64,000 nucleotides of DNA from Bacteroidota bacterium (lineage in GTDB: Bacteria; Bacteroidota; Bacteroidia; AKYH767-A; OLB10). Below, piece by piece: positions 264-58,783 of the stretch. The translations under genes and the position numbers were made by a program. Position 1 is the first letter of the stretch. The number at the start of each line of letters is the position of its first letter. Under the pieces are notes generated by a model. The model had not been told where the DNA came from. It saw nothing but the letters and a program-made list of their open reading frames with translations, and ran no database searches. The DNA lies in assembly GCA_016717325.1 (NCBI GenBank), contig JADKFV010000002.1, forward strand, positions 135,661 through 199,660, written 5' to 3'.

Positions 264-3200
264 ATGAAAAAAAGTTACGAAAATCTTTCTTATGGGACTT
301 CCCATAATTCAGGATTCAAATCGAAAAGCTTTAAAAAAGCTTTCGCAATTGCTTCATTATTAATTGTAGTTCAACTTTCAAACAATGCTTGCGCAATTTC
401 CACAGCATCCGGTTGGGATACTCAAAAATCCGTGCAGAATCGAAATAATGTAGCTGATTGCCCCATTTTAAAATTAGTATCTGAACCTGCTTCAACTTAT
501 GATTTTAATCTCAATTTGTCAGGGTCTTCAAATGTTTTTCAATTTGATCATGTTTTTTGTTTACGGGAGCCAGGTCAAAATCTGACAATGGAAGCGGACT
601 TTAATATTTTAAACTCGAACATAAATCATCCAATCAAGCTTTCAGAAAATGAAAATAATTTAAAAATTAATTCCGATAGACTCGAGTTACAATCACTGCC
701 TATTGCAAACTGCTCATCAACATCAACCGGATGTAATGGAGGAAATACTGGTAGTGCATCGATTTCTGTAACTGGTGGTGTTGGCCCCTTCACTTATATT
801 TGGAATACAGGAGCTACAACATCGACTATTAGTAACTTGGCTGTAGGAACCTATACATCTACAGTAACAGATTCTAAAGGTAACACTTCATCTTGTAGTG
901 TTGCAATTGTTTCTGGGGGTGGCTTAACAGTATCATGTACTGGGACAAATATTAATTGCAATGGATCCAAAACAGGCGTTGCATTAATTTCGGCATCTGG
1001 TGGTGTTCAACCATATTCTTATCTTTGGAATAATGGCTCCAACTCTGATTTAATTGTGAACCAGTATGCTGGTACGTATACTGGTACAGTTACAGATGAC
1101 AAAGGATGCACTCGTTCGTGTTCATACACAATAACTCAACCAGCTCCTTTAGTTGTAAATGGAACTAAGACCGATGTTTCTTGTAATGGGTATAATAATG
1201 GCTCTGCTTCTGTTACTGCTACAGGCGGAACTCCACCTCTAACTTATATTTGGAATAATGGAGCCACTGTAGCCAGCATTAATGGCTTGTCACCAGGAAC
1301 ATATGTTGTAACCATAACCGATTCAAAAGGTTGTTCATTTATGTATATCGTTAGTAAAATTTCACAACCAACATTATTGGTAGCAACCTGCAGCGGCACG
1401 AATGTAACGTGCAAAGGCGCATCGACAGGTTCGGCCGCAGTAGTAGCAAGTGGAGGCACAGCCCCATATACGTACTTATGGAGCAATGGAAAAACCACAG
1501 CCTCGAACAACGGCTTATCGGCAGGCACATACACAGCGACAGTAACAGACTCAAAAGGCTGCACAGCAAAATGTTCATACACAGTAACAGAGCCAACCTA
1601 TGTAGTTGCAATGTGCAGTGGCACGAATGTAAATTGCTACGGAGGCAACAATGGCAGCGCAAGCGTAACAGCAAGTGGCGGTACCCCACCATACACATAC
1701 ATGTGGAGCAATGGTAAAACCACCTCATCAAACAGCAACTTATCAGCCGGCACGTATACAGCTACAGTTACCGATGCAAACGGATGTACAGCAACCTGTT
1801 CCTACACAGTAACGCAACCAACATTATTGGTAGCAACCTGCAGCGGCACGAATGTAACGTGCAAAGGCGCATCGACAGGTTCAGCAGCGGTGGTAGCAAG
1901 TGGCGGCACAGCGCCTTACACATACTTATGGAGCAATGGCAAAACGACATCAGCAAACAATACACTTGCCGCAGGAACATACACAGCCACTGTAACAGAC
2001 TCAAAAGGCTGCACAGCAAAATGTTCATACACAGTAACAGAGCCAACCTATGTAGTTGCAATGTGCGTGGCGTGTAATGCTGGTGCGTCCACCAACCTAT
2101 GTAGTTGAAGTGCAGTGGCACAATGTAAATTGCTACGAGGCAACAATGGCAGCGCAAGCGTAACAGCAAGTGGCGGCACACCATCATACACACATGTGGA
2201 GCAATGGTAAAACCACCTCATCGAACAACAATTTATCAGCCGGTACGTATACAGCTACAGTTACCGATGCAAACGGATGCACAGCAACCTGTTCATACAG
2301 TAACACAACCAACATTATTGGTAGCAACCTGCAGCGGCACGAATGTAACGTGCAAAGGCGCATCGACAGGTTCAGCAGCGGTGGTAGCAAGTGGAGGCAC
2401 AGCGCCTTACACATACTTATGGAGCAATGGCAAAACGACATCAGCAAACAATACACTTGCCGCAGGACATACACAGCAACAGTAACAGACTCCAAAAGGC
2501 TGCACAGCAAAATGTTCATACACAGTAACAGAGCCAACGTATGTAGTTGCAACATGCAGTGGCACGAATGTAAATTGCTACGGAGGCAACAATGGCAGCG
2601 CAAGCGTAACAGCAAGTGGCGGCACACCATCATACACATACATGTGGAGCAATGGTAAAACCACCTCATCAAACAGCAACTTATCAGCCGGCACGTATAC
2701 AGCTACAGTTACCGATGCAAACGGATGCACAGCAACCTGTTCATACACTGTAACACAACCAACATTATTGGTAGCAACCTGCAGCGGCACGAATGTAACG
2801 TGCAAAGGCGCATCGACAGGTTCAGCAGCGGTGGTAGCAAGTGGAGGCACAGCGCCTTACACATACTTATGGAGCAATGGAAAAACCACAGCCTCGAACA
2901 ACGGCTTATCAGCAGGAACGTACACAGCGACAGTAACAGACTCAAAAGGCTGCACAGCAAAATGTTCATACACAGTAACAGAGCCAAGCTATGTAGTTGC
3001 AACATGCAGTGGCACGAATGTAAATTGCTACGGAGGCAACAATGGCAGCGCAAGCGTAACAGCAAGTGGCGGCACACCACCATACACATACATGTGGAGC
3101 AATGGTAAAACCACCTCATCGAACAACAATTTATCAGCCGGTACGTATACAGCTACAGTTACCGATGCAAACGGATGCACAGCAACCTGTTCATACACAG

Positions 3201-6200
3201 TAACACAACCAACATTATTGGTAGCAACCTGCAGCGGCACGAATGTAACGTGCAAAGGCGCATCGACAGGTTCAGCAGCGGTGGTAGCAAGTGGAGGCAC
3301 AGCGCCTTACACATACTTATGGAGCAATGGCAAAACGACATCAGCAAACAATACACTTGCCGCAGGCACATACACAGCAACAGTAACAGACTCAAAAGGC
3401 TGCACAGCAAAATGTTCATACACAGTAACAGAGCCAAGCTATGTAGTAGCAACATGCAGTGGCACGAATGTAAATTGCTACGGAGGCAACAATGGCAGCG
3501 CAAGCGTAACAGCAAGTGGCGGCACACCACCATACACATACATGTGGAGCAATGGTAAAACCACCTCATCAAACAGCAACTTATCAGCCGGCACGTATAC
3601 AGCTACAGTTACCGATGCAAACGGATGCACAGCAACCTGTTCATACACTGTAACGCAACCAACATTATTGGTAGCAAGCTGCAGCGGCACGAATGTAACG
3701 TGCAAAGGCGCATCGACAGGTTCAGCAGCGGTGGTAGCAAGTGGAGGCACAGCACCTTACACATACTTATGGAGCAATGGAAAAACCACAGCCTCGAACA
3801 ACGGCTTATCGGCAGGCACGTACACAGCAACAGTAACGGACTCAAAAGGCTGCACAGCAAAATGTTCATACACAGTAACAGAGCCAAGCTATGTAGTTGC
3901 AACATGCAGTGGCACGAATGTAAATTGCTACGGAGGCAACAATGGCAGCGCAAGCGTAACAGCAAGTGGCGGCACACCACCATACACATACATGTGGAGC
4001 AATGGTAAAACCACCTCATCAAACAGCAACTTATCAGCCGGCACGTATACAGCTACAGTTACCGATGCAAACGGATGCACAGCAACCTGTTCATACACTG
4101 TAACGCAACCAACATTATTGGTGGCAAGCTGCAGTGGCACGAATGTAACGTGCAAAGGCGCATCGACAGGTTCAGCAGCGGTGGTAGCAAGTGGAGGCAC
4201 AGCGCCATATACGTACTTATGGAGCAATGGAAAAACCACAGCATCGAACAACGGCTTATCGGCAGGAACATACACAGCAACAGTAACAGACTCAAAAGGC
4301 TGCACAGCAAAATGTTCATACACAGTAACAGAGCCAGCGTATGTAGTAGCTACCTGTATCGGTACGAATGTAAATTGCTACGGAGGCAACAATGGCAGCG
4401 CAAGCGTAACAGCAAGTGGCGGCACACCACCATACACATACATGTGGAGCAATGGTAAAACCACCTCATCAAACAGCAACTTATCAGCCGGTACGTATAC
4501 AGCTACAGTTACCGATGCAAACGGATGCACAGCAACCTGTTCATACACAGTAACACAACCAACATTATTGGTAGCAACCTGCAGCGGCACGAATGTAACG
4601 TGCAAAGGCGCATCGACAGGTTCAGCAGCGGTGGTAGCAAGTGGAGGCACAGCGCCATATACGTACTTATGGAGCAATGGAAAAACCACAGCCTCGAACA
4701 ACGGCTTATCGGCAGGAACGTACACAGCAACAGTAACAGACTCAAAAGGCTGCACAGCAAAATGTTCATACACAGTAACAGAGCCAACCTATGTAGTTGC
4801 AATGTGCAGTGGCACCAATGTAAACTGCTATGGCGGCAACAATGGCAGCGCAAGCGTAACAGCAAGTGGCGGCACACCATCATACACATACATGTGGAGC
4901 AATGGTAAAACCACCTCATCAAACAGCAACTTATCAGCCGGCACGTATACAGCTACAGTTACCGATGCAAACGGATGCACAGCAACCTGTTCATACAAGG
5001 TAACGCAACCAACATTATTGGTAGCAACCTGCAGCGGCACGAATGTAACGTGCAAAGGCTCATCGACAGGTTCGGCCGCAGTAGTAGCAAGTGGAGGCAC
5101 AGCGCCATATACGTACTTATGGAGCAATGGAAAAACCACAGCATCGAACAACGGCTTATCGGCAGGAACATACACAGCGACAGTAACAGACTCAAAAGGC
5201 TGCACAGCAAAATGTTCATACACAGTAACAGAGCCAACCTATGTAGTTGCAATGTGCAGTGGCACGAATGTAAATTGCTACGGAGGCAACAATGGCAGCG
5301 CAAGCGTAACAGCAAGTGGCGGCACACCATCATACACATACATGTGGAGCAATGGTAAAACCACCTCATCGAACAACAATTTATCAGCCGGTACGTATAC
5401 AGCTACAGTTACCGATGCAAACGGATGCACAGCAACCTGTTCATACACAGTAACACAACCAACATTATTGGTAGCAACCTGCAGCGGCACGAATGTAACG
5501 TGCAAAGGCGCATCGACAGGTTCAGCAGCGGTGGTAGCAAGTGGAGGCACAGCGCCTTACACATACTTATGGAGCAATGGCAAAACGACATCAGCAAACA
5601 ATACACTTGCCGCAGGCACATACACAGCAACAGTAACAGACTCAAAAGGCTGCACAGCAAAATGTTCATACACAGTAACAGAGCCAACGTATGTAGTTGC
5701 AACATGCAGTGGCACGAATGTAAATTGCTACGGAGGCAACAATGGCAGCGCAAGCGTAACAGCAAGTGGCGGCACACCATCATACACATACATGTGGAGC
5801 AATGGTAAAACCACCTCATCAAACAGCAACTTATCAGCCGGCACGTATACAGCTACAGTTACCGATGCAAACGGATGCACAGCAACCTGTTCATACACTG
5901 TAACACAACCAACATTATTGGTAGCAACCTGCAGCGGCACGAATGTAACGTGCAAAGGCGCATCGACAGGTTCAGCAGCGGTGGTAGCAAGTGGAGGCAC
6001 AGCGCCTTACACATACTTATGGAGCAATGGAAAAACCACAGCCTCGAACAACGGCTTATCAGCAGGAACGTACACAGCGACAGTAACAGACTCAAAAGGC
6101 TGCACAGCAAAATGTTCATACACAGTAACAGAGCCAAGCTATGTAGTTGCAACATGCAGTGGCACGAATGTAAATTGCTACGGAGGCAACAATGGCAGCG

Positions 6201-9200
6201 CAAGCGTAACAGCAAGTGGCGGCACACCACCATACACATACATGTGGAGCAATGGTAAAACCACCTCATCGAACAACAATTTATCAGCCGGTACGTATAC
6301 AGCTACAGTTACCGATGCAAACGGATGCACAGTAACCTGTTCATACACTGTAACGCAACCAACATTATTGGTAGCAACCTGCAGTGGCACGAATGTAACG
6401 TGCAAAGGCGGATCGACAGGTTCGGCCGCAGTAGTAGCAAGTGGAGGCACAGCGCCTTACACATACTTATGGAGCAATGGAAAAACCACAGCCTCGAACA
6501 ATGGCTTATCGGCAGGCACGTACACAGCAACAGTAACAGACTCAAAAGGCTGCACAGCAAAATGTTCATACACAGTAACAGAGCCAAGCTATGTAGTAGC
6601 AACATGCAGTGGCACGAATGTAAATTGCTACGGAGGCAACAATGGCAGCGCAAGCGTAACAGCAAGTGGCGGCACACCACCATACACATACATGTGGAGC
6701 AATGGTAAAACCACCTCATCGAATAACAATTTATCAGCCGGCACGTATACAGCTACAGTTACCGATGCAAACGGATGCACAGCAACCTGTTCATACACTG
6801 TAACGCAACCAACATTATTGGTAGCAAGCTGCAGCGGCACGAATGTAACGTGCAAAGGCGGATCGACAGGTTCAGCAGCGGTGGTAGCAAGTGGAGGCAC
6901 AGCGCCTTACACATACTTATGGAGCAATGGAAAAACCACAGCCTCGAACAACGGCTTATCAGCAGGCACCTACACAGCAACAGTAACAGACTCAAAAGGC
7001 TGCACAGCAAAATGTTCATACACAGTAACAGAGCCAAGCTATGTAGTAGCAACATGCAGTGGCACGAATGTAAATTGCTACGGAGGCAACAATGGCAGCG
7101 CAAGCGTAACAGCAAGTGGCGGCACACCACCATACACATACATGTGGAGCAATGGTAAAACCACCTCATCAAACAGCAACTTATCAGCCGGCACGTATAC
7201 AGCTACAGTTACCGATGCAAACGGATGCACAGCAACCTGTTCATACACTGTAACGCAACCAACATTATTGGTAGCAAGCTGCAGCGGCACGAATGTAACG
7301 TGCAAAGGCGCATCGACAGGTTCGGCCGCAGTAGTAGCAAGTGGCGGCACAGCGCCTTACACATACTTATGGAGCAATGGAAAAACCACAGCCTCGAACA
7401 ACGGCTTATCAGCAGGCACGTACACAGCAACAGTAACAGACTCAAAAGGCTGCACAGCAAAATGTTCATACACAGTAACAGAGCCAAGCTATGTAGTAGC
7501 AACATGCAGTGGCACGAATGTAAATTGCTACGGAGGCAACAATGGCAGCGCAAGCGTAACAGCAAGTGGCGGCACACCACCATACACATACATGTGGAGC
7601 AATGGTAAAACCACCTCATCAAACAACAATTTATCAGCCGGCACGTATACAGCTACAGTTACCGATGCCAATGGATGTACAGCAACCTGTTCCTACACAG
7701 TAACGCAACCAACATTATTGGTAGCAACCTGCAGCGGCACGAATGTAACGTGCAAAGGCGCATCGACAGGTTCGGCCGCGGTGGTAGCAAATGGAGGCAC
7801 AGCGCCTTACACATACTTATGGAGCAATGGAAAAACCACAGCCTCGAACAACGGCTTATCGGCAGGAACATACACAGCGACAGTAACAGACTCAAAAGGC
7901 TGCACAGCAAAATGTTCATACACAGTAACAGAGCCAAGCTATGTAGTTGCAATGTGCAGTGGCACTAATGTAAATTGCTACGGAGGCAACAATGGCAGCG
8001 CAAGCGTAACAGCAAGTGGCGGCACACCATCATACACATACATGTGGAGCAATGGTAAAACCACCTCATCGAACAACAATTTATCAGCCGGCACGTATAC
8101 AGCTACAGTTACCGATGCCAATGGATGTACAGCAACCTGTTCATACACTGTAACACAACCAACATTATTGGTAGCAACCTGCAACGGCACGAATGTAACG
8201 TGCAAAGGCGCATCGACAGGTTCAGCAGCGGTGGTAGCAAGTGGAGGCACAGCGCCTTACACATACTTATGGAGCAATGGCAAAACCACAGCCTCGAACA
8301 TACGGCTTATCCGCAGGCACATACACAGCAACAGTAACAGACTCAAAAGGCTGCACAGCAAAATGTTCATACACAGTAACAGAGCCAAGCTATGTAGTAG
8401 CAACATGCAGTGGCACGAATGTAAATTGCTACGGAGGCAACAATGGCAGCGCAAGCGTAACAGCAAGTGGCGGCACACCACCATACACATACATGTGGAG
8501 CAATGGTAAAACCACCTCATCAAACAGCAACTTATCAGCCGGCACGTATACAGCTACAGTTACCGATGCAAACGGATGCACAGCAACCTGTTCATACACT
8601 GTAACGCAACCAACATTATTGGTAGCAACCTGCAGCGGCACGAATGTAACGTGCAAAGGCGCATCGACAGGTTCAGCAGCGGTGGTAGCAAGTGGAGGCA
8701 CAGCGCCTACACACATACTTATTGAGCAATGGAAAAACAACAGCCTCGAACAACGGCTTATCAGCAGGCACGTACACAGCAACAGTAACAGACTCAAAAG
8801 GCTGCACAGCAAAATGTTCATACACAGTAACAGAGCCAAGCTATGTAGTTGCAACATGCAGTGGCACGAATGTAAATTGCTACGGAGGCAACAATGGCAG
8901 CGCAAGCGTAACAGCAAGTGGCGGCACACCACCATACACATACATGTGGAGCAATGGTAAAACCACCTCATCAAACAGCAACTTATCAGCCGGCACGTAT
9001 ACAGCTACAGTTACCGATGCAAACGGATGCACAGCAACCTGTTCATACACTGTAACGCAACCAACATTATTGGTAGCAAGCTGCAGCGGCACGAATGTAA
9101 CGTGCAAAGGCGGATCGACAGGTTCGGCCGCAGTAGTAGCAAGTGGAGGCACAGCGCCTTACACATACTTATGGAGCAATGGAAAAACCACAGCCTCGAA

Positions 9201-21068: not shown

Positions 21069-21121
21069 TCGTCACAAATAAACATTTCTAAAAATCCCTC
21101 AACACAATTGAGGGATTTTTT

Positions 21122-31527: not shown

Positions 31528-31541
31528 TTTTTATAGGTGCG

Positions 31542-32389: not shown

Positions 32390-32515
32390 GAAAAATTGTA
32401 ACTATAAAATTTAGATTGAAGATAGGCCAAAGCAAATCTGGTTCCTGAAATAAAAGCTATTGAAGGTTTTCGGAATTCTGATTGATATACTTTTTTTAAT
32501 TGGCCTTGCAACTTT

Positions 32516-32581
32516 TGAATTAATAATTCAACAACAAAATCAAAAAACCGTCATACAGAAATGTGTGACGGTTTTTTTTGT
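32516..32581. repeat. Copy B of the 66-bp terminator-containing direct repeat.
   Basis: See copy A. Confidence 0.8.
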
Positions 32582-32621
32582 GAATAATATTTTGCTGTGT
32601 TGGTTTTTCTATTGAAAACAA

Positions 32622-45488: not shown

Positions 45489-45508
45489 TTTTTAAAACAT
45501 ATATCAAA

Positions 45509-47089: not shown

Positions 47090-47124
47090 TTTTGGGTTTT
47101 TTCTCTAATAGAAAATTTGAACAT

Positions 47125-47162
47125 AGCCGCAAAGCACTTACACTTTGCGGCTTTGTTTTTTT
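47125..47162 (+). terminator. Rho-independent terminator after susD.
   Basis: agccgcaaag...ctttgcggct hairpin followed by ttgttttttt. Confidence 0.55.
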
Positions 47163-47180
47163 ACTTTATACTATAAATAA

Positions 47181-48823
47181 ATGACATCATTTATTCGCTT
47201 CAAAATTTTTAAATTCAATATTGTACAAAATAATTTGTCAGGCACATTTTGTAAACCATTATTTTGTTTCTTGACACTGCTATTAATTTCAACATCAATA
47301 TTGGCACAAAATAAAAGTATGAATGATAATGCTAAATCAGCACAACAAAACCTTACTGCAAGTTTTCCTAATTGTGTTTTTTACGAAATATTCATTCGCT
47401 CGTTTTGCGATTCCAATAATGATGGAATAGGGGATATACCCGGCATAATTTCGAAATTGGATTACTTACACGATTTGGGTATCGAAGGAATTTGGCTTAC
47501 ACCTTTTAATCCATCGCCAAGCTATCACAAGTATGATGTTACCGATTATTACAATGTTGATGAAGAATATGGAACATTGGATGATGTGCGCGAACTTATT
47601 ACAGAAGCACACAAACGCAATATAAAAGTGATAATGGATTTTGTGGTGAACCACACTTCGGTGCAACACCCTTGGTTTATAGAAGCACAAAAGAGTAAAA
47701 CAAATGCTTACCACAATTATTATACTTGGGCCGATGAAAATAATTTACCGGGCGAAAAACATTGGTGGCATTTTTTACAAAGCAATTCGAAACAAACCAT
47801 TGAAGGTGAAAAGTATTTAGGTTTTTTTGACCGTTCCATGCCCGATTTAAATTACGATAACAATGATGTACGAAGCGAAATAATTAAGGCCGGGAAATAC
47901 TGGCTCAAAGATATTGGCATGGATGGTTTTAGACTTGATGCAGCAAAGTGGATTTATATGCCCGGCAACGAAAAGACAAATTATAGCTGGTGGCAACAGT
48001 TTGTTTCCGAAATGAAAAAGTAAAACCTTCAGCTTTTTTGTAGGTGAAATTACCGATAAAAATATTGCCACAGCACCATACCTTAAAGATGCACTTACTT
48101 CTGTTTTCAATTTCGAACTTGCCGAAAAAATAGTTGAGACCGTGCAAACTTATACCGATAGTGGAATTGTAAGTTTAGTGAATGATTCACGCCATCTTTT
48201 TCGAGAATAATCCCGGATTTATTGATGCAACTTTCATCACCAATCATGATCAGGATCGAATTGCTTCGTTTACAAACGGTGACGAAAATAAAACGAAAAT
48301 GGCTGCAGCAATATTACTCACCTTGCCCGGTTCACCATTTATATATTATGGCGAAGAACTTGGTATGACAGGCAAAAAACCCGATGAGCAAATCCGTGAA
48401 CCTTTTTTGTGGAATGATGATGCAATTGATGCCGGCCAGACTTCGTGGATAAAAGCAAAATACAGTGTGGAGCAAAATGTAAAACCACTGTCATTCCAAA
48501 TTATAGATGGCAACAGCATTTACGCTTATTATAAGAAATTAATTTCAATACGCAATCAATCTCTGGCATTGCGTGTTGGTGATCTGGTTTCTTCGGCATT
48601 GAGCTCCGATAACTTTTTGGTCTATCAGCGGGCTGTAAAACTTAATAGCGCAATTGTTATACATAACTTGCAAAGCGAATTAAAGGTGGTAGATTTGTTT
48701 TCTATTGCAAAAGGAAAATATAAAATTTTATTTGCCACATCATCTGTCGACATAACGGGAGGAAGCATAATAAAGGTCCCGCCATACTCGTCTGTTATAA
48801 TTGATGTAACCGATTTGAAATAG
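47181..48823 (+). CDS. GH13 alpha-amylase. Two frameshifts, at about 48015-48020 in an A5 run and at about 48150-48200.
   Basis: DFVVNHTS (region I). GFRLDAAKWI (region II, with the Asp nucleophile). ITNHDQDR (region IV) in the downstream ORF. The middle piece SAFFVGEITDKNIATAPYLKDALTSVFNFELAEK (region III, carrying the Glu) lies in a third frame. Confidence 0.8.
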
Positions 48824-48956
48824 ATTGAAGCAATTCAATAATTGAAATTGAAAAGGAGATAAAATTGAAAAAGTAACTATAGTAGTATACGAACAAGTAT
48901 TAAAATTAAAATTGAGCCGAAGTAACATTTTATAACATAAATTAATTTTAAAAAAT

Positions 48957-49976
48957 ATGATAAAAAATTTGAACACATTAAAGTTGATGGTTGCCATAGC
49001 TGTACTATTTGCAACTGTATCTTGCGGAAGCGATAAGCCGAAAAAAATTCGTATTGGTTTTGCCATGGATACCTACACCGAAGAACGATGGAAAAAAGAT
49101 GCCGAATTTTTTAAACAAAAAATAGAAGCACTTGGTGGAGAAGTTGAAGTGCAGGCATGCAATGGAAACGAACAGGTACAGAATCAACAAATAGAAAATT
49201 TTATAACCAAACAAGTGGACCTTATTCTGATAGTGCCTCACAACAGCAAGACATGCGCTACTGCAGTAAAACAAGCCAACGAAGCCAATATACCCATCAT
49301 TGCTTACGACAGAATGATAAAAGATTGCGATATAAGTATGTACATATCTTTCGATAATGAAAAGGTTGGCGAAATGCAGGCAACATACGCAACACAGGTT
49401 GCGCCAAAAGGAAATTATTTATTGGCCGGAGGATCGGCCACGGACGAGAATGCAATATTATACCGCAAAGGTCAAATGAATATTTTACAACCATTTGTCG
49501 ATAAAGGCGAAATAAAAATATTGATAGATCAATTTTGCAAAGATTGGTTGCCTGTTGAGGCTTTGAAACTTACACAAAATGCACTTACACTTTCCAATAA
49601 TACAATTGCTGCAATAGTAGTTGCAAACGATGGCCTGGCAGGTGGATGCATACAAGCCCTCACTGAGCAGCAGTTGCAAGGCAAAGTACCTGTTACTGGA
49701 CAGGATGCAGAAATTTCGGCCATACAACGCATATTGGATGGTACTCAAAGTATGACTGTATATAAGCCCGTAAAGATACTTGCCGAAACAGCAGCCGAAG
49801 TTGCAATGGGCTTAGTGAAAAAAGCATCAACAATTGCCGAAACAAAAAAAATGAACAATGGTGTGAAAGATGTACCAAGCATTTTGTTAACTCCGGTAAT
49901 GGTAACAAAAGAAAACATTGAAGCCACCGTAATTAAAGATGGATATATAGACAAATCGAAATTGAAGTTTCAATAA
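48957..49976 (+). CDS. Periplasmic sugar-binding lipoprotein of a CUT2-type ABC transporter (XylF/RbsB-like).
   Basis: Lipobox ATVSC. Type-I periplasmic binding protein fold composition (IRIGFAMDTYTEERW..., PIIAYDRMI). Confidence 0.8.
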   Translation: MIKNLNTLKLMVAIAVLFATVSCGSDKPKKIRIGFAMDTYTEERWKKDAEFFKQKIEALGGEVEVQACNGNEQVQNQQIENFITKQVDLILIVPHNSKTCATAVKQANEANIPIIAYDRMIKDCDISMYISFDNEKVGEMQATYATQVAPKGNYLLAGGSATDENAILYRKGQMNILQPFVDKGEIKILIDQFCKDWLPVEALKLTQNALTLSNNTIAAIVVANDGLAGGCIQALTEQQLQGKVPVTGQDAEISAIQRILDGTQSMTVYKPVKILAETAAEVAMGLVKKASTIAETKKMNNGVKDVPSILLTPVMVTKENIEATVIKDGYIDKSKLKFQ

Positions 49977-49985
49977 TTAAATGTC

Positions 49986-51488
49986 ATGTACTTACAGATA
50001 AAAAATATAAATAAGTTTTACGGCAATACACATGCATTAAGCAATGTTTCGTTCGATGTGCGCAAAGGAACCATACATGCTATATGTGGTGAGAATGGTG
50101 CCGGCAAATCTACGTTGATAAAAATCTTGTGCGGCCTTATACCTCATGGCCAGTATGAAGGAAGTTTTACGATTGATGGTGTAGAAAAAAAATTCTTTAC
50201 CATAAATGATTCGCGCAAAAGCCGCATAGCTGTTATTGCACAGGAACTTGCCTTGGTGCCCGAGATGACGGTGGCCGAAAATATTTTTCTTGGCAACGAA
50301 CCCCGTAAAAATTTTATTGTCGATAAAGATAAAATGTATGACCTGGCTTCGCAAGCTATGCTTCAATTGCAATGCGATATAGGTACACATACACAGGTAA
50401 AAGAATTGGGAATTGGTAAGCAACAGATGATTGAAATTGCAAAGGCCATTTCGAAAAATGCCGAAATATTAATTCTTGACGAACCTACTGCTGCACTTAC
50501 AGAACAGGAATCGACAACGCTTTTGAATTTACTTTTACAATTAAAAGACAAAGGTGTTACGTGCATTCTTATTTCTCATAAGCTCAAAGAAATATTAAAA
50601 GTATCGGATGATATCACTGTGCTGCGCGATGGTTCAACAGTGTGCACCATGAAAATAAGTGAAACCACCGAAATAGATTTGGTAGCAAAAATGGTGGGTC
50701 GTACTATGGTCGATTTTTTCAGTAAGGAAAAAATCGACATTGGTAAAGAAGTATTACAAATAAAAAATTTGAGCTCCACTTTGCGCAATAAAAAAGTGAT
50801 GCATTCAAATGTAAATGTGAATGTACATGCAGGTGAAATAGTAGGCATTGCAGGCCTGATGGGAAGCGGCCGCACCGAACTTTTGCAAATATTATTTGGT
50901 GCCCATGAGTTCATTGTGGATGGCAGTATAGTTTTGAACGGAGATAAAATTTTGCCACAAAATCCGCAACAAGCCATAGAAAAAGGAATAGCATTAATTA
51001 CCGAAGATCGTAAGCAGTATGGTTTATTTCTAGAAAACGATATTGTGTTTAATTCGACAATAGCATTTTTAAAAAGCTTTACTGCAAACAACCTGATGCA
51101 AAAAAAGGAAATGGAAAGTTATGCCAACGAAAACATACAACAACTAAGAATAAAAACAAATGATGCCGCCACCAAAACCGGAAGTCTTAGCGGTGGCAAT
51201 CAGCAGAAAGTTGTGTTTAGTAAATGGATGAAAAAACTGCCTCATCTATTGCTTGCCGATGAACCCACACGTGGAATAGATGTAGGCGGCAAGGCCGAAA
51301 TTTATAAAGAGATTTATCGGTTGGCGCGGCAGGGAACTGCGGTTTTGGTAGTATCGTCCGACCTACTGGAGTTGATAGGCATATGCGACCGAATGTATGT
51401 AATGGCAAATGGTGAAATAAAAGTTTGCCTCAACCGGAATGAATTTGATGAAAAAATAATTTTAAAACACGCTTTAAATATTTCATAA
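49986..51488 (+). CDS. Sugar ABC transporter ATP-binding protein with duplicated nucleotide-binding domains (XylG/RbsA-like).
   Basis: Two Walker A (GENGAGKST, GLMGSGRT), signature (LSGGNQQK) and Walker B (ILILDEPT, LLLADEPTRGID) sets. 500 aa. Confidence 0.85.
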   Translation: MYLQIKNINKFYGNTHALSNVSFDVRKGTIHAICGENGAGKSTLIKILCGLIPHGQYEGSFTIDGVEKKFFTINDSRKSRIAVIAQELALVPEMTVAENIFLGNEPRKNFIVDKDKMYDLASQAMLQLQCDIGTHTQVKELGIGKQQMIEIAKAISKNAEILILDEPTAALTEQESTTLLNLLLQLKDKGVTCILISHKLKEILKVSDDITVLRDGSTVCTMKISETTEIDLVAKMVGRTMVDFFSKEKIDIGKEVLQIKNLSSTLRNKKVMHSNVNVNVHAGEIVGIAGLMGSGRTELLQILFGAHEFIVDGSIVLNGDKILPQNPQQAIEKGIALITEDRKQYGLFLENDIVFNSTIAFLKSFTANNLMQKKEMESYANENIQQLRIKTNDAATKTGSLSGGNQQKVVFSKWMKKLPHLLLADEPTRGIDVGGKAEIYKEIYRLARQGTAVLVVSSDLLELIGICDRMYVMANGEIKVCLNRNEFDEKIILKHALNIS

Positions 51489-52597
51489 TGACAGCAAAAT
51501 TTTCTCTCAGTAAAATTGGCAATGTACGCTCGTTAACTTTAATAGCAGCATTGGCTTGTATATGTATCGTATTTCACTTTGCCACCGATGAAGTATTTCT
51601 ATCGGCACGAAATTTTTCGAACCTCATGCGACAGGCATCCGTTGTGGGCATTGTTGCATGCGGAATGGTGATGATAATTGTATCGCGCGAAATTGACCTT
51701 TCTGCAGGTTCGGCAGTAGCACTTGCCGGAGGATTGGCGGCCATTGCAAATGTGCAATTTCAAATGCATCCCGCCATGGCCATAGGAGTAGCCTTAGCTG
51801 CCGGATTGCTTATTGGCGCTATAAACGGACTATTGGTGGCCTATACGCGCATCCCTGCATTTATTGTTACCCTTGGCGGCTTGCTGGTTTACAGAGGCCT
51901 TATCAAAGGTTTTACTCAGGGCGAAACCATTGGCCCGGTGAGCGAGGGTTTTCAAATGTTCGGAACCGGATTTGTACCATCGTATATAGTGTATGTTGTA
52001 CTGGCAATAAGTATTGGTTATTTTTTGTATCATGCGTTTAATAATTTTAAAAACAAGAATATGATTAATGCCATAAAATATATTGTATTCTCTTTGTTGG
52101 CCATTGCTTTTATCATGATGTTTTTAAATTATAAAGGATTGCCTGTACCTGTTTTGATTGTGCTTATTGTGGCATTGGTGGTTTCGTTTGTAATGGAAAA
52201 CGTTCCCTTTGGACGATACATTTTTGCTATAGGCGGCAACCGCGAAGCTGCATTTTACTCCGGTATAAATATTCGCAAACAAATATTTCGTGTGTATATA
52301 TTGATGGGCTTGCTCATTGCTATAGCCGGTATAGTTTACACAGCACAACTGGGAAGTGCAACATCGGCCGCAGCACGCAATCTCGAACTCGATGTGATTG
52401 CTGCCTGTGTAATTGGCGGTTGCAGTTTGCTGGGCGGCCGCGGAAATATTTTCGATGCATTGTGTGGCGCACTCATTATGGCATCGCTCGACAATGGCAT
52501 GAGCCTTCTCAATGTGCAGGATTATATTCAGGATGTGATAAAAGGAGTTATACTTGTATTAGCAGTAGGAATCGATATGCTCAATAAAAAGAATTAA
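51488..52597 (+). CDS. Sugar ABC transporter permease (XylH/RbsC-like).
   Basis: Polytopic membrane protein. Start overlaps the ATPase stop. The typical branched-sugar permease C-terminal motif GGRGNI is present. Confidence 0.8.
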   Translation: MTAKFSLSKIGNVRSLTLIAALACICIVFHFATDEVFLSARNFSNLMRQASVVGIVACGMVMIIVSREIDLSAGSAVALAGGLAAIANVQFQMHPAMAIGVALAAGLLIGAINGLLVAYTRIPAFIVTLGGLLVYRGLIKGFTQGETIGPVSEGFQMFGTGFVPSYIVYVVLAISIGYFLYHAFNNFKNKNMINAIKYIVFSLLAIAFIMMFLNYKGLPVPVLIVLIVALVVSFVMENVPFGRYIFAIGGNREAAFYSGINIRKQIFRVYILMGLLIAIAGIVYTAQLGSATSAAARNLELDVIAACVIGGCSLLGGRGNIFDALCGALIMASLDNGMSLLNVQDYIQDVIKGVILVLAVGIDMLNKKN

Positions 52598-53070: not shown

Positions 53071-56000
53071 TTACTGTTTTACGAAAGTATTATTCATTAC
53101 ACCTTGAGGAGTAATTATTTTAAGTGTAAAAATTCCTTTACCTAAGTTGCTTGTGTTTATAATGCCATTGGTAAGTTGGCCATTGAGAATAACTCGGCCT
53201 GTTAAATCCAGCACTTCAAATTTTGCATTTTGTAATTTTGAATTATCAGATACGTATACATGCATAGTTGTTGTTGCAGGATTAGGATAAAGCATAAACG
53301 AAGATTGCGGTGTTTCTGATAAGCCAATTGAGCTGAATAATTCTACATCGTCCCAATAGTATGTTTTTTGTCCCGCAGTTGCACCATCGGTACCGAAGTT
53401 AAAGAATATGGAGGCCATGTCGTATAAGTATGCGGGGTTGAAAACAGCAGTTCCTGGTGCTTCGTTATCAAAATCGAACACAAGATATTCCCAGGTATTT
53501 ACTCCTGTAGTGAGGGCTTCTGTTTCAACACTTTGAGTTGGCTGTCCGTGCACTTCCACTTTCAACCGTACCGGAATATTTGCATCGGGCGAGTAAACAC
53601 GAACACGCATTTTGTGATTATTTGCCGTGAAAGGAATAACATTAGCAAAGCCAAGATTTGTTCCAATGGTGGTACCGGCCCATGTTTGTGCTGCTGCAGT
53701 TTTTGTAGTAATAGCTACTTTGTTTGCGGCATTGTTTGGGTCGGGCCCAAGTACCGATGCATTTCCTCCAAAATCGGTAAGGGTATAATCTACATTTAAT
53801 GAATCGAAATATACAGGAAGGTTTATTTGATTTAAACCTGTGCCACCACCCGTAACAAAACGAATTTCGTCCTGGTAGAATGTAAAGTTTGCACTGCTAT
53901 CGCCCATCACACCTAAATCATAAATGAAGACTAAATCGGTATAAGTATTTGATGCTGTTCCCGAAAAATCCCAACTCAATTCTTCCCATGCATTTGCTAA
54001 TGTAGTAGTATCCGATTTTTCGACAAATCCACCGGCAGAGTTTTCTAATTTGAAAAGAACAGGACATCCGGTGCGAGGAGAATAGACAAACATTTTAAAT
54101 GTGTTGTTGGTGGTAAAGTCTAATGCCGATGCAAGAGTTAATTTACTACCTCCCCAAACCTGACCAACATTTTTTATCATTCGCAGCACTTTAGGCGTTG
54201 TATCCAATCCTCCCGGATACGGGTTTGTCATTAATGTTGTTATGCCACCATCGAAGTCTGTCATGGTGTATGTAATTGTAGAATCATCATAAGTAATTGG
54301 CAATACCAATCCAAGATTTGCACCCGATACAAATTCTACATCATCGAAGAGATAAGTTTTTTGTCCTGCAGTTGCACCATCGGTACCGAAGTTGAAAAAT
54401 ATGGAAGCCATATCGTATGGAAAAGCAGCGTTGAAAGCTGCCGTACCCGGAGCTTCATTATCGAAATCGAAAGTTAACCATTCCCATGTATTTACACCTG
54501 TGGTTAATGCTTCTGTTTCTACCGATTGTCCGGGTTGTCCGTGCACTTCCACTTTCAATCGCACAGGAATATTTGCATCGGGTGAGTATACACGCACTCT
54601 CATTTTTCTATCGACTGCGGTAAAAGGAATAACCGAAGCAAAACCAAGATTGGTTCCAATGGTAGTGCCAGCCCATGTTTGCGCGGTTACATCTTTTGTT
54701 GTAATAGCAACAGTGTTTGCAGCATTGTTTGGATCGGGACCAAGCACAGTAGAGTTGCCACCAAAATCGGTAACGGTATAATCAACATTAGCAACATCGA
54801 ATGTTACAGGCAAATCAATTTGATTTAATGCACCCGATACAAATTCTACATCATCGAAGAGGTAAGTTTTTTGTCCTGCAGTTGCACCATCAGTTCCGAA
54901 GTTAAAAAATATGGAAGCCATATCGTATGGAAATGCTGCATTGAAAGCTGCCGTACCCGGAGCTTCATTATCGAAATCGAAAGTTAACCATTCCCAGGTA
55001 TTTACTCCTGTGGTTAATGCTTCTGTTTCTACCGATTGTCCGGGTTGTCCGTGCACTTCCACTTTCAATCGCACTGGAATATTTGCATCGGGTGAGTAAA
55101 CACGCACTTGCATTTTTCTATCGACTGCTGTAAAAGGAATAACCGAAGCAAAACCAAGATTGGTTCCAATGGTAGTGCCGGCCCATGTTTGCGCGGTTAC
55201 ATCTTTTGTTGTAATAGCAACTGTGTTTGCAGCATTGTTTGGATCGGGACCAAGCACAGTTGAGTTACCACCAAAATCGGTAACGGTATAATCAACATTA
55301 GCAACATCGAATGTTACAGGCAAATCAATTTGATTTAATGCACCCGATACAAATTCTACATCATCGAAGAGGTAAGTTTTTTGTCCTGCAGTTGCACCAT
55401 CGGTACCGAAGTTAAAAAATATGGAAGCCATATCGTATGGAAATGCTGCATTGAAAGCTGCCGTACCCGGAGCTTCATTATCGAAATCGAAAGTTAACCA
55501 TTCCCAGGTATTTACTCCTGTGGTTAATGCTTCTGTTTCTACCGATTGTCCGGGTTGTCCGTGCACTTCCACTTTCAATCGCACTGGAATATTTGCATCG
55601 GGTGAGTATACACGCACTCTCATTTTTCTATCGACTGCGGTAAAAGGAATTACCGAAGCAAAACCAAGATTGGTTCCAATGGTAGTGCCAGCCCATGTTT
55701 GCGCGGTTACATCTTTTTGTTGTAATAGCCGGGACCAAGCACAGTAGAGTTGCCACCAAAATCGGTAACGGTATAATCAACATTAGCAAGGCAGATACAG
55801 GCAAATCAATTTGATTTAATGCCCGATACAAATTCTAACATCGAAGAGATAAGTTTTTGGTCCTGGCGGGGGCCCAACCGTGCCGGGGGGGAAAAAAAGG
55901 GGGGGAAAAGGGATCGTATGGAAATGCAGCGTTGAGCCCGGAGCTTCATTATCGAAATCGAAAGTTAACCATTCCCAGGTATTTACTCCTGTGGTTAATG

Positions 56001-57408
56001 CTTCGGTTTCTACCGATTGACCGGGTTGTCCGTGCACTTCCACTTTCAATCGCACCGGAATATTTGCATCGGGTGAGTAAACACGCACTTGCATTTTTCT
56101 ATCGACTGCCGTAAAAGGAATTACCGAAGCAAAACCAAGATTGGTTCCAATGGTAGTACCGGCCCATGTTTGCGCGGTTACATCTTTTGTTGTTATAGCA
56201 ACAGTGTTTGCAGCATTGTTTGGATCGGGACCAAGAACAGTAGAGTTGCCACCAAAATCGGTAACGGTATAATCAACATTAGCAACATCGAAAGTTACAG
56301 GCAAATCAATTTGATTTAATGCACCCGCTACAAATTCTACATCATCGAAGAGATAAGTTTTTTGTCCTGCAGTTGCACCATCGGTACCGAAGTTAAAAAA
56401 TATGGAAGCCATATCGTATGGAAATGCTGCATTGAAAGCTGCCGTACCCGGAGCTTCATTATCGAAATCGAAAGTTAACCATTCCCATGTATTTACACCT
56501 GTGGTTAATGCTTCTGTTTCTACCGATTGTCCGGGTTGTCCGTGCACTTCCACTTTCAATCGCACAGGAATATTTGCATCGGGTGAGTATACACGCACTT
56601 GCATTTTTCTATCGACTGCTGTAAAAGGAATTACCGAAGCAAAACCAAGATTGGTTCCAATGGTAGTACCAGCCCATGTTTGCGCGGTTACATCTTTTGT
56701 TGTTATAGCAACAGTGTTTGCAGCATTGTTTGGATCGGGACCAAGCACAGTAGAGTTGCCACCAAAATCGGTAACAGTATAATTCACATTAGCCAGGTCG
56801 AAAGTTACCGGCAAATCAATTTGTGCCGGTGGAGCTTGCATCAATTTTACATTTTCGAAGTAGTATGTTTTTGCGCCTGCTGTTGCTCCATCGGTACCGA
56901 AGTTAAAAAATATGGATGCCATGTCGTAAGCGTAAGCTGCATTGAAAGCTGCCGTGCCAGGAGCTTCATTATTGAAATTAAAATTTAACCACTCCCATGC
57001 ATTTGCCGTTGTTGTCATGGCCTCTGTTTCTACCGATTGGCCTGCTTGTCCATGTACTTCCACTTTCAGTCGCACAGGAATATTTGCATCGGGTGAGTAT
57101 ACGCGCATTCTCATTTTTCTGTTATTTGCAGTAAATGGAATTGGATTTGCAAAACCAAGATTGGTACCAACGGTAGTGCCGGCCCATGTTTGCGCGGTTG
57201 CACCTTTTGTTGTTATGGCGACAGTATTGGCAGCATTGGTTGGATCGGGACCAAGCACGGTTGAATTGCCACCAAAATCGGTAACGGTATAATCAACATT
57301 TGTGAGGTCGAATGTTACGGGCAAATCAATTTGATTTAATTGAGCCTGTGTTGTTCCGAAGCTGAATGCTAAAAGAAACAACAGAACAGATTTGATAATT
57401 TTTTGCAT
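53071..57408 (-). CDS. T9SS-secreted surface protein built from about 8 tandem ~170-aa beta-sandwich (CBM/lectin-like) repeats. The sequence is corrupted at about 55700-55940.
   Basis: Signal peptide MQKIIKSVLLFLLAFSFGTTQAQ. Repeats NQIDLPVTFD.ANVDYTVTDFGGNSTVLGPDP...RVYSPDANIPVRLKVEVHGQPGQSVETEA...FFNFGTDGATAGQKTY. C-terminus SSFMLYPNPATTTMHVYV...GIFTLKIITPQGVMNNTFVKQ is the T9SS CTD. Confidence 0.7.
54300..56830 (-). repeat. Near-identical tandem DNA repeats with a period of about 510-525 bp, inside the T9SS repeat protein gene.
   Basis: Identical antisense ORFs (MEAISYGNAALKAAVPGASLSKSKVNHS...) recur at 54392, 54911, 55421 and 56402. Protein repeat units are letter-for-letter identical. 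Confidence 0.7.
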
Positions 57409-57463: not shown

Positions 57464-58783
57464 TTAACGGTTAATGCAAATTTGCTTTGTAGTGTAAAAT
57501 GTATTTCCCGATTTTATTCTGATTACATACATATTATTGTTTTGTAAATTGACAGGAATATTTGTGTTGCAATTTGCATTACCCGATGCATGAAAAACTC
57601 TTTGGCCAACAATGTCAAAAATTTCGATGTCATCTATTTTGAAATTTGTACTTGAATGAATGTACATTGATGAATTGTTAATTGATATAAAATAATTGTT
57701 GTTCGAAATTTCATCTAAACTAACCATCGAACAATTGCTGCACGATTGCCACATGGAACATGTTATTAAATTTGTATTACCAATGTTAAGCACCCTGTTT
57801 GTATATTGTGAGTTTCCATTTGTGCAAGGCCATTGAGGATCGAGAATTTCTTTTGCCGGGCCATTACCATTTACATACAAATATTCAACTGTAGAATTTT
57901 CGGGCAAAGGCAATTGTGTTTGCCATGTACCATTTGTATTTAATGTCATGGGTGTGCCTGGCCAATTATTAAATCCATTCCAGCTTCCGAATAAATATAC
58001 GGGAGTAGAATCAGGATTTTCAACTATAAAAGTGACATCAACATTTGGAATAACTACACTGCCACAAGTATCACATAAAGCCCATCTATTGCAAATACTT
58101 AAATTGTTGCTTCCAACATTGAGCACACGGTTAGTATATTGTCCATTGCCGTTTGTACATGTCCAGGCGGGATTTAAATCTTCTGTTATTGGTGCATTAC
58201 CATTCACATATAAAAATTCGTATGCTGCATTTGCCGGCAGGCTTAAACTCACATCCCAAAGATTATCGCCATTTGCATCAGTCATCATATCGCCAGGAAA
58301 GTTGCCCCAGTTTGTCCAACTGCCAAAAACATATACCGGCAGCGAGTCGGGGTTTTGTACCTGAAACATAACAGTAACACTTGCCGGTGGCGGCACAATT
58401 ACACATGCATTGCAGGTGTTCCATGTGTAGCATAATGCTGTGTCGGTATTTCCTAAATTTAATACCCGGTTAGTGTATTGTGTATTTCCATTTGTGCATG
58501 GCCAGTTTGGATCTAAAATTTCTTTTGCAAAGGCACCGCTGCCATTCACATATAAAAACTCATGTGTGGTATTGCTTGCAATAGGTATTGTTAATGACCA
58601 TGTACCGCCTCCTAAATCTGACATAGGGGTGCCGGGCCAATTACCAAAACTATTCCACGACCCGAATAAAAATACGGGAGTAGAGTCGGGGCTCGAAACC
58701 TGGAATGTTACATTTTGTGTTTGTGCAAATAAGCAACTTGCAACTAACATGCTTTGAACAAATAGTAGTGTTTTTTTCATCAT
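57464..58783 (-). CDS. T9SS-secreted protein with three tandem CBM20/CBM48-like (starch or glycogen-binding-like) modules.
   Basis: Three ~100-aa modules fit V.F.V..PDS.PV.LFGSWN.FGNWPGTPM...W......P....EFLYVNG......E, the pattern of CBM20/48/E-set binding modules. Signal peptide. The C-terminal ~75 aa look like a T9SS CTD. Confidence 0.5.
   Translation of the reverse strand: MMKKTLLFVQSMLVASCLFAQTQNVTFQVSSPDSTPVFLFGSWNSFGNWPGTPMSDLGGGTWSLTIPIASNTTHEFLYVNGSGAFAKEILDPNWPCTNGNTQYTNRVLNLGNTDTALCYTWNTCNACVIVPPPASVTVMFQVQNPDSLPVYVFGSWTNWGNFPGDMMTDANGDNLWDVSLSLPANAAYEFLYVNGNAPITEDLNPAWTCTNGNGQYTNRVLNVGSNNLSICNRWALCDTCGSVVIPNVDVTFIVENPDSTPVYLFGSWNGFNNWPGTPMTLNTNGTWQTQLPLPENSTVEYLYVNGNGPAKEILDPQWPCTNGNSQYTNRVLNIGNTNLITCSMWQSCSNCSMVSLDEISNNNYFISINNSSMYIHSSTNFKIDDIEIFDIVGQRVFHASGNANCNTNIPVNLQNNNMYVIRIKSGNTFYTTKQICINR

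Follow-up and report, generated by a model that had tools for sequence, protein, structure and literature searches.

Does a 64-kb stretch of Bacteroidota DNA (the whole analysed stretch, hereafter the window) in which seven genes end in type IX secretion system (T9SS) C-terminal sorting domains (CTDs) represent a dedicated secretome region, or do these genes simply lie near one another? The original prediction, made from the sequence, regarded T9SS cargos as not normally this clustered and read two secreted proteases, placed between two POT peptide transporters, as an extracellular proteolysis and peptide-uptake economy. The explanation favoured here, with good confidence, is a plainer one. 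The seven are independent cargo genes in a cargo-rich lineage; their count reflects a lineage-wide abundance of cargos together with cargo proximity in variable parts of the genome, and they form neither a dedicated island nor a protease/POT module.

Seven probable T9SS substrates

The seven genes are as follows, with TIGR04183 scores for the type A domains.

264–15179, plus strand: giant SprB-repeat protein, ~4,970 aa if read through; type A CTD at ~14946–15170 (66.3 bits, ORF 13191–15179)
16596–19101, minus strand: BNR/sortilin-Vps10-like beta-propeller protein (PF15902 and PF02012); putative signal peptide; type A CTD at ~16602–16829 (53.7 bits, ORF 16596–18404)
23535–27119, plus strand: M4 (thermolysin-type) metalloprotease with FTP/PepSY propeptide, catalytic domains, P-domain and two SprB repeats; type A CTD at ~26886–27116 (61.6 bits)
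29461–31527, plus strand: Omp28-domain protein (PF11551, 54.3 bits; PF18962, 50.9 bits); type A CTD at ~31300–31494 (38.6 bits)
32879–35065, minus strand: S8 subtilase (PF00082, 117.6 bits); putative signal peptide; type A CTD at ~32885–33121 (35.7 bits)
53071–57408, minus strand: 7-copy 170-aa (510-nt) repeat protein, CBM35-like (PF18099, weak); putative signal peptide; type A CTD at ~53074–53292 (35.7 bits, ORF 53071–55623)
57464–58783, minus strand: protein with three CBM48/20/53-like repeats; putative signal peptide; probable divergent CTD at ~57479–57658

Profile searches of the C-termini, the check that had been proposed for the claim of seven CTDs, succeeded for six proteins and nearly succeeded for the seventh. 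Six passed TIGR04183 (type A, cutoff 23 bits) with 35.7–66.3 bits, PF18962 agreed for the same six (34.2–69.3 bits against a cutoff of 27), and all seven matches terminate 0–11 residues before the stop codon. The protein at 57464–58783 scored below every cutoff, with 21.0 against 23 bits for TIGR04183, 22.8 against 27 for PF18962 and 33.1 against 40 for the type C model NF033708 (E = 3.8e-8, model positions 1–53 of 55). A type A HMM built without this protein gave it 16 bits and the other six 59–99. Among its full-length homologues, TIGR04183 was matched by 35 of 38 and NF033708 by 33 of 38 (E <= 0.01), so that the seventh protein likely carries a divergent CTD, probably intermediate between type A and type C. 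The long alignment to NF033708 brings it close to the F. johnsoniae ChiA-type CTD, which is likewise associated with carbohydrate-active functions, but the score stays under the curated cutoff and the family matches type A similarly weakly. A six-frame scan of the 64-kb window found no eighth CTD, and neither the giant nor any other window protein matched the type B models TIGR04131 and PF13585 (CHU_C). The claim thus largely holds: by their profile matches, six of the proteins are of the T9SS type A cargo type, and the seventh, just under the type A and type C cutoffs, probably is so too.

Putative N-terminal signal peptides, judged by inspection from a basic n-region, a hydrophobic core and an A-Q/A-x-A-like site, were recognised in all seven proteins, examples being MKKTLTLFLISIASMAMAQ and MRKIFIIALAALFVSQVNAQ; in the giant a 25-aa extension precedes the signal segment, and the true start may be internal. 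Because no gene for the T9SS machinery (SprA/Sov, PorK/L/M/N, PorV, PorU) lies within the 64-kb window, we infer the secretion of these proteins. By analogy with established T9SS biology, Sec would export each product to the periplasm by means of its signal peptide, and the C-terminal beta-sandwich sorting domain would route it through the T9SS translocon. In the case of type A, the PorV shuttle would pass the protein to the PorU sortase, which would remove the CTD and then anchor the protein to LPS or release it.

Known cargos with type A CTDs include P. gingivalis RgpB and many enzymes of F. johnsoniae and C. hutchinsonii. Compared with the cargos defined by TIGR04183 and PF18962, the window proteins show the same combination of a signal peptide and a 70–80-aa CTD at the extreme C-terminus; they do not differ in kind, and are predicted members from an uncultured lineage. 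The type A cargo classes met most often include serine peptidases, metallopeptidases and carbohydrate-binding proteins, and those found in the window (adhesin-like repeats besides S8 and M4 peptidases and carbohydrate-binding proteins) are the most frequent of this type (PMC11205867).

The roles of the seven products would be unrelated, comprising a giant surface or adhesin-like protein, a BNR propeller, the M4 and S8 proteases, an Omp28-like CxxC protein and two carbohydrate-binding proteins. Profile searches confirmed the P-domain and SprB repeats that had been read in the M4 protease, an architecture common to thousands of homologues. With HELTH at residue 379 and a downstream Glu motif in M4, and the catalytic triad motifs D139/H204/S571 in S8, both proteases look catalytically competent. 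The Omp28-domain protein has an N-terminal CGPC motif, its CxxC lying at residue 40. The outcome is a set of seven probable T9SS substrates from an uncultured lineage, including two proteases and a repetitive surface protein of ~5,000 aa; its significance is mainly at the level of annotation, with little beyond.

The giant SprB-repeat protein

The largest cargo had been presented as an "SprB giant", a description that is right for its repeats and wrong for its sorting domain. PF13573 SprB repeats score above the gathering threshold in three of its ORF pieces (227.6, 1006.8 and 230.9 bits), the highest value belonging to ORF 2642–8509 with 25 SprB-repeat stretches. Most of the gene is occupied by one array, the 450-bp unit of which corresponds to two 75-aa SprB repeats and the GC content of which is 48.5%, against ~37% elsewhere in the window:

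2092–13573, plus strand: tandem array inside the giant gene, 450-bp unit x 25.5 copies at 96% identity (TRF)

Like the giant, F. johnsoniae SprB is very large and repetitive, carries PF13573 repeats and is itself secreted by the T9SS. The CTD of SprB, however, is of type B (TIGR04131), and the adhesin requires a neighbouring gene of the PorP/SprF family (PMC10202324). The giant ends in a type A CTD and has a near-perfect array as its core, and no PorP/SprF-family gene stands beside it (downstream comes a thioredoxin-like gene in the opposite orientation, and only 263 nt of the window lie upstream). With a type A rather than a type B CTD, and no TIGR04131 match, the giant is ruled out as an SprB orthologue. 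From SprB repeats one therefore cannot conclude that the secretion signal is of the SprB type (type B).

Cargo density in related lineages

Whether seven cargos in 64 kb are unusual depends on the background chosen. The window holds 7 CTDs per 64 kb, or 6.4 when the M4 gene is excluded as anchor. The phylum-wide background, taken from 80 POT-anchored loci of other Bacteroidota, is 0.57 CTDs per 64 kb, making the window ~12 times denser. Closer comparison came from loci in other genomes of the lineage background, six anchored on carA, which cover 127 kb and include two mutually syntenic loci, and three anchored on M4. The carA-anchored, housekeeping loci of the nearest lineages hold 2.5–3.7 CTDs per 64 kb, densities being taken with and without the 10-kb halves next to ribosomal-protein operons, since carA lies behind such an operon in four of the six relatives and is an imperfect random anchor; by this measure the window is 2–3 times denser. 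The M4-anchored loci, from three other lineages, hold 7.5–8.5 CTDs per 64 kb with the anchor excluded, as against 6.4 in the window. Related cargo-anchored windows being equally dense, the cargo density of the window is not unusual, and the view that T9SS cargos are not normally this clustered is not supported. The finding of seven cargos is real but ordinary for cargo-rich Bacteroidota. At the same time, the excess over POT-anchored and housekeeping-anchored loci leaves room for a modest real enrichment, which the window may have. At a lambda of 2.5–3.7, about 1–6 of the ~70 windows per genome would reach at least seven by chance.

Published cargo-rich genomes give a similar picture. The genomes of Fluviicola taffensis and Cytophaga hutchinsonii measure ~4.4–4.6 Mb. 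At least 230 CTD proteins are found in F. taffensis (PMC10202324) and 147–157 in C. hutchinsonii, with several species exceeding 100 (PMC11611037), a genome-wide density that corresponds to an expected 2–3 per 64 kb for genomes of that approximate size. Local cargo runs also occur in C. hutchinsonii, at CHU_0938/0939 and CHU_3434-3441 (PMC11611037; PMC6247017). The window differs from these genomes in coming from a different, uncultured lineage, known here from 64 kb. High local cargo counts are the norm in cargo-rich Bacteroidota, and only against a background from the same clade could the count in a single window be judged unusual.

Gene arrangement and the glycan locus

The arrangement of the genes argues in the same direction. 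The seven cargo genes are distributed over both strands, belong to at least five transcription units interspersed with housekeeping genes, and do not make up a single functional unit. CutC, carA, an SDR, a transketolase subunit and transporters separate the cargos; the first two are placed as follows:

27177–29206, both strands: CutC (plus) and carA (minus), interleaved housekeeping genes (Pfam)

Co-orientation or operon structure, conserved linkage and clade-exceptional density, which would mark a co-regulated island, were not found at the locus against the relatives compared.

Two of the cargos have a context of their own. Both the 170-aa repeats at 53071–57408, seen in the DNA as seven direct repeats spaced 510 nt apart, and the three CBM-like repeats at 57464–58783 are real, as had been described, and they belong to the following surroundings:

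42480–52597, plus strand: SusC/SusD pair, SusG-like alpha-amylase and sugar ABC transporter (Pfam)
58804–63998, minus strand: upstream part of the gene string that ends in the two CBM cargos, with a 279-aa unknown, a GH3, an SGBP/CBM30-like protein, a 334-aa unknown and a partial ORF (Pfam)

Intergenic gaps along the minus-strand string measure only 55, 20, -11, 1, -1 and 1 nt. On the plus strand, a SusC-like gene (42480–45488; Plug, CarbopepD_reg and TonB barrel) is followed by SusD_RagB (45509–47089) and by an alpha-amylase with SusG_C, so that adjacent SusC-like and SusD-like genes occur together with CAZymes, as defines a PUL. By gene content and spacing, the two CBM cargos end a predicted GH3-containing glycan-utilisation operon that adjoins the SusC/SusD/amylase locus. 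Judged only from the CBM and GH families, its substrate may be an alpha- or beta-glucan.

PULs with T9SS-secreted components exist, an example being the F. johnsoniae chitin locus with ChiA. Similarly, the genes of two CBM-bearing CTD proteins here run in the same direction as a GH3 gene and an SGBP-like gene, closely spaced with them, and adjoin the SusC/SusD/amylase locus; unlike the components of such PULs, the window cargos consist of binding modules only, with no recognised catalytic domain. Two of the seven probable substrates are thus glycan-binding proteins tied to a PUL-like operon. The glycan-utilisation string holding these two cargos, like the interleaved housekeeping genes, had been overlooked in the original prediction.

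Strain variation around the cargo genes

Comparison was made with conspecific contigs from metagenomes (JGI 3300007584, ENA ERZ27275274, NCBI GCA_020051655.1 and Logan runs) and with more distant relatives; the lineage is phylogenetically isolated, and the closest carA from another species shares only ~72% identity. These comparisons bear on a rival explanation, rather unlikely in our judgement, by which the window is a strain-variable accessory region, a hotspot of recombination or gene gain, where cargo genes have accumulated by horizontal transfer and cassette shuffling to a density above that of the core genome. It is exactly here that the conspecific contigs differ. BLAST alignment blocks pass over the first POT gene: in a conspecific strain its place is taken by a version with 51% identity, although the flanks on either side match at 95–98%. 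Beyond the Omp28-CTD gene, strains L001 and L083 have an SprB-CTD gene and RHS toxin genes. The window and L084 instead have a PIN toxin cassette between copies of a duplicated 65-bp repeat, after which S8 comes in the window. In addition, the 3' part of the window's M4 gene, encoding SprB repeats and CTD, shares 88% DNA identity with the 3' end of a different L001 cargo gene. A relative at 58% protein identity (L002) keeps only the order BNR, POT, three small genes and M4, and has in this neighbourhood M43-CTD and GH18-CTD cargos instead, non-homologous to those of the window. The two- to threefold excess of cargo-anchored over housekeeping-anchored density would also fit. Against such a hotspot, core housekeeping genes (carA, the transketolase subunit, CutC) are embedded in the region, tRNA and Rfam scans of the window were empty, no integrase or transposase signal was found in it, GC is uniform outside the repeat array, and the samples are small.

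A more specific form of this explanation, decidedly doubtful, proposes a conserved hotspot of cargo gain, loss and exchange, at which cargo genes would be preferentially assembled or swapped through common 3' cassettes encoding SprB repeats and CTD, through allelic replacement on the scale of single genes, and through flanks that vary between strains. If true, the locus would be one of secretome diversification, more than a dense patch. The BNR–POT–M4 linkage conserved at 58% identity could, for its part, reflect some functional coupling.

Peptide transporters and proteases

The reading of independent cargo genes was further set against the proposed proteolysis module. Both POT genes were confirmed where they had been reported, each matching PF00854 above its cutoff of 27 bits:

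19368–21068, plus strand: POT1, putative di/tripeptide:proton symporter, not a cargo (153.3 bits)
40452–41945, minus strand: POT2, putative peptide transporter (190.1 bits)

A dedicated secretome region in which the M4 and S8 proteases and their flanking POTs were selected as a proteolysis and peptide-uptake module is very unlikely. In its favour, both proteases look competent by sequence and carry CTDs, two POT genes are present, in both L001 and L002 the BNR-CTD gene and M4 likewise have a POT between them, and one distant M4 orthologue has an adjacent S8 gene. Linkage between POTs and proteases was nevertheless absent from 80 + 2 other loci: in the 80 POT-anchored loci (named genomes), the 10 kb around the POT1-like gene contain no homologue of M4, S8 or BNR, and two of the three M4-anchored loci (L094 and L095) have no POT gene. 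Furthermore, strains do not share an orthologous POT at the conserved position (51% and 36% identity), and at least five genes, carA and CutC among them, lie between the elements of the supposed module. POT2 itself is flanked by the transketolase subunit and SusC, with S8 5 kb off, beyond unrelated genes. In other Bacteroidota the POT2 orthologue normally follows immediately behind POT1 in the same orientation; of 80 loci, 44 have it downstream on the same strand, and in 29 the two form a tandem less than 500 bp apart. In the window, POT2 stands 19.4 kb from POT1 and is inverted, a separation that looks like a rearrangement. As the pair is tandem elsewhere, the placement of "proteases between two POTs" reflects this rearrangement in the window, and the claim of an extracellular proteolysis and peptide-uptake module is not sustained.

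Broken reading frames

The outer coordinates given for all seven genes are correct, but three spans (264–15179, 16596–19101 and 53071–57408) are not continuous ORFs. The giant is split by 1-nt indels into at least six ORF pieces; its array contains six indels, three of which shorten an A5 homopolymer to A4 at one and the same place of the repeat, in the units starting at 9736, 11985 and 12884. The BNR gene is in two pieces owing to one extra A at ~18384, and the gene at 53071–57408 is also in two, with several frame switches in a garbled repeat stretch at ~55790–55950. Genes other than cargos are affected as well: carA is interrupted at ~28675, where a homopolymer differs in length (T5 versus T6), the alpha-amylase is in three frameshifted pieces, and a GH16 is broken by a 1-nt homopolymer indel. 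In the short-read contig of the sister strain L001, BNR (834 aa), carA (365 aa) and GH16 (265 aa) are intact. Homopolymer indels that extend to carA and the amylase, together with these intact copies, suggest that the breaks are probably residual long-read assembly errors, mostly in homopolymers.

That the giant, BNR and 170-aa-repeat genes are true pseudogenes of a decaying secretome, as their frame breaks taken at face value (at least six in the giant, one in BNR, several in the repeat gene) would imply, is highly improbable given the like indels in carA, GH16 and the amylase, the intact L001 copies, the thrice-repeated A5 to A4 change typical of systematic long-read error, and repeat units that are still 96% identical with no build-up of stop-creating substitutions. 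The broken ORFs in the assembly of the window are probably, for the most part, homopolymer artefacts.

Sorting domains of the seven cargo proteins

[quoted passage not shown] That observation is real, as six strict CTDs and one probable one, with broken ORFs and the SprB label as caveats; exceptional clustering and a proteolysis module are not supported. The cargos add members to families already known, and their arrangement is ordinary for a cargo-rich Bacteroidota lineage. In the proposed HMM check, with NCBIfam TIGR04183 (curated cutoff 23 bits) defining type A CTDs, six proteins exceeded the cutoff, all at the extreme C-terminus and with Pfam PF18962 concurring:

264-15179, giant with repeat array, 66.3 bits
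16596-19101, BNR protein, 53.7 bits
23535-27119, M4 protease, 61.6 bits
29461-31527, Omp28-domain protein, 38.6 bits
32879-35065, S8 subtilase, 35.7 bits
53071-57408, repeat protein, 35.7 bits (ORF 53071-55623)
57464-58783, triple-CBM protein, sub-threshold

The seventh protein lies below the cutoff of every model (TIGR04183, 21.0 vs 23; the type C model NF033708, 33.1 vs 40; PF18962, 22.8 vs 27), and it scored 16 bits, against 59-99 for the other six, with a type A HMM trained on 26 other CTDs. Its C-terminus resembles ChiA-type (type C) signals. Since 35 of its 38 full-length homologues match TIGR04183 and 33 of 38 the type C model, its C-terminus is accepted as a probable CTD, divergent and lying between types A and C. 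Scanning all six frames of the window revealed no eighth CTD, and type B CTDs (TIGR04131) are absent throughout. The N-termini of all seven cargos look like signal peptides, and 48% of the bases in the window belong to their genes.

Within the triple-CBM family, 23 of the 38 homologues also match NCBIfam NF052315, 'T9SS plug protein' (best E = 1.9e-11), presumably via a common CBM48/E-set-like domain. The giant's N-terminal non-repeat part (264-2108) carries a weak internal TIGR04183 match at residues 300-356 (24.2 bits, no stretch individually significant), probably from an Ig-like beta-sandwich domain rather than a sorting signal.

Cargo density in related genomes

Density was compared with three sets of loci: POT-anchored across the phylum, carA-anchored in the nearest lineages, and M4-anchored in related lineages. 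For the phylum as a whole, the 80 loci come from named Bacteroidota genomes and total 1.36 Mb; their 12 CTDs amount to 0.57 per 64 kb, so the window is about 12 times denser. The lineage is isolated, as the next-best match of carA outside the species is only about 72% identical. The nearest lineages gave six carA-anchored loci, which total 127 kb and contain 5 CTDs: a density of 2.5 per 64 kb, rising to 3.7 when four 10-kb ribosomal-operon halves are left out. With these values as lambda, the probability of seven or more CTDs is 0.014-0.08, so that about 1-6 such windows are expected per ~4.5-Mb genome from chance alone. Furthermore, M4-anchored loci from three other lineages, anchor excluded, contain 7 type A and 1 type B CTD in 60.0 kb (7.5-8.5 per 64 kb), against 6.4 in the window with its anchor likewise excluded, which does not support the view that T9SS cargos are not normally this clustered. 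Published counts agree with the comparators: Fluviicola taffensis has at least 230 CTD proteins (PMC10202324), Cytophaga hutchinsonii has 147-157, and several species exceed 100 (PMC11611037).

Given the comparators, the published counts and the chance estimate, the window is typical of cargo-containing windows in its clade. Cargo genes in genomes of this clade lie at most 2-3 times nearer to each other than to core housekeeping genes, and this closeness is a general pattern, not specific to the locus. The seven proteins belong to the commonest functional classes of type A T9SS cargos (PMC11205867), and they are standard cargos of this type.

POT transporters and the secreted proteases

The M4 protease (HELTH and downstream Glu motif present) and the S8 subtilase (D139, H204, S571 present) lie between two di/tripeptide transporter genes, POT1 (19368-21068, +) and POT2 (40452-41945, -), an arrangement taken earlier to suggest an economy of extracellular proteolysis and peptide uptake. 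Across the 80 POT loci, no homologue of M4, S8 or BNR lies closer than 10 kb to the POT1-like gene, POT is missing from two of three M4-anchored loci, and no selected module is evident. For any such bacterium it would make biological sense to take up peptides after digesting proteins outside the cell.

Directly downstream of a POT1 orthologue (at least 60% identity) there is almost always a POT2 orthologue in the same orientation; among the 80 Bacteroidota loci sampled, one lies within <500 bp in 29 and anywhere downstream on the same strand in 44. Because the two are usually tandem elsewhere and are 19.4 kb apart and convergent here, the arrangement is best explained by a tandem transporter pair that was split and inverted. 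The spacing is consistent with an inversion having one breakpoint between the pair. The block common to the window and a 58%-identity relative comprises only BNR, POT, three small genes and M4, and the relative carries a different POT paralogue (36% identical).

In L001, a 30.6-kb metagenome contig from a sister strain whose M4 protease is 98% identical, the POT protein is 51% identical and its flanks 95-98%. The POT1 ORF does not align to L001 at the DNA level, a gene-sized replacement between conspecific strains at 19471-21092. POT1 is 75-80% identical to POTs from Flavobacterium and from lake Bacteroidota MAGs, which suggests that this transporter allele was exchanged horizontally.

Gene organisation

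Ordinary genes lie between the cargos, which thus fall into at least five transcription units on both strands:

Interleaved genes: thioredoxin-like protein, POT1, GH16, YtxJ/BrxC bacilliredoxin, CutC, carA, alpha/beta-hydrolase-like protein, SDR, LTXXQ protein, transketolase subunit, POT2
Carbohydrate genes: SusC/SusD pair with SusG-like amylase; sugar ABC transporter
Minus-strand string: GH3, SGBP/CBM30-like protein, unknowns

Two carbohydrate-binding cargos terminate the GH3 string (intergenic gaps 55, 20, -11, 1, -1 and 1 nt), and together they form an operon-like glycan-utilisation unit. PUL-encoded T9SS substrates are known, and the CTD-bearing binding proteins with this PUL-like operon match them. 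Scans for tRNAs and Rfam families found none in the window.

In the Omp28-domain cargo, the N-terminal part contains CGPC, a thioredoxin-like CxxC motif, and the protein is weakly matched by NF045500, the model for an 'Omp28-related selenoprotein'; on both grounds it is the Cys version of a family using selenocysteine elsewhere. A thioredoxin-like gene (15915-16475) and the bacilliredoxin gene (22693-23031) lie nearby.

Reading frames and the repeat array

ORF listing confirmed all outer coordinates of the predicted genes, but three of the seven are not continuous frames: the giant is in at least 6 ORF pieces, and the BNR and repeat proteins in 2 each. The amylase is in 3. In L001 the BNR protein (834 aa), carA (365 aa) and GH16 are intact, and single-base homopolymer differences from the window coincide exactly with the ORF breaks: A3 vs A2 at ~18384 (BNR), T5 vs T6 at ~28675 (carA) and T4 vs T5 in GH16. 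The repeat protein breaks in a garbled G/A-run stretch, where its regular 510-nt repeat spacing falls to 471-496 nt. Only six indels occur in the giant's array, three of them an identical A5 to A4 change at one repeat position.

Examples of indel and frame-break sites: 18384, 21264, 28675, 47950-48250, 55790-55950
Indel-bearing units of the giant's array: starts 7934, 8385, 9736, 11985, 12884

Frameshifting indels occur window-wide at about 1 per 4 kb, mostly as homopolymer length changes, and include carA. Assembly error probably accounts for the broken ORFs and is preferred to decay because this essential gene is also "broken". The indel pattern is characteristic of a long-read assembly that was polished too little, and ORF annotation of the contig therefore requires frameshift-tolerant gene calling.

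The giant's array (2092-13573) contains 25.5 copies of a 450-bp unit at 96% identity, implying recent expansion or concerted evolution; its copy number in the assembly may consequently be unreliable. Such an array can be spanned by long reads only. It covers 11.5 kb, with 48.5% GC vs ~37% and an AT skew of ~0.34. The name "SprB giant" does not hold, as PF13573 repeats are the sole feature common to this protein and F. johnsoniae SprB and the window has no type B CTD.

Strain variation

An insert of ~1 kb (31528-32600) carries small ORFs and a PIN-domain toxin gene (31701-31937, -), whose protein is 100% identical in strain contig L084; it is flanked by a duplicated 65-bp hairpin and T-run sequence (~31540 and 32515-32579). 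At the same junction, conspecific contigs L001, L083 and L085 have a 254-aa ORF, an SprB-CTD gene and RHS toxin genes instead. In addition, the 3' SprB-repeat and CTD cassette of the M4 gene (26496-26833) shares 88% DNA identity with L001 17514-17848 and L083 5470-5807, the 3' end of a different cargo gene encoding an 837-aa SprB/DUF7619 protein. This identity between different cargo genes suggests that CTD-encoding cassettes may have been recently exchanged or duplicated between them.
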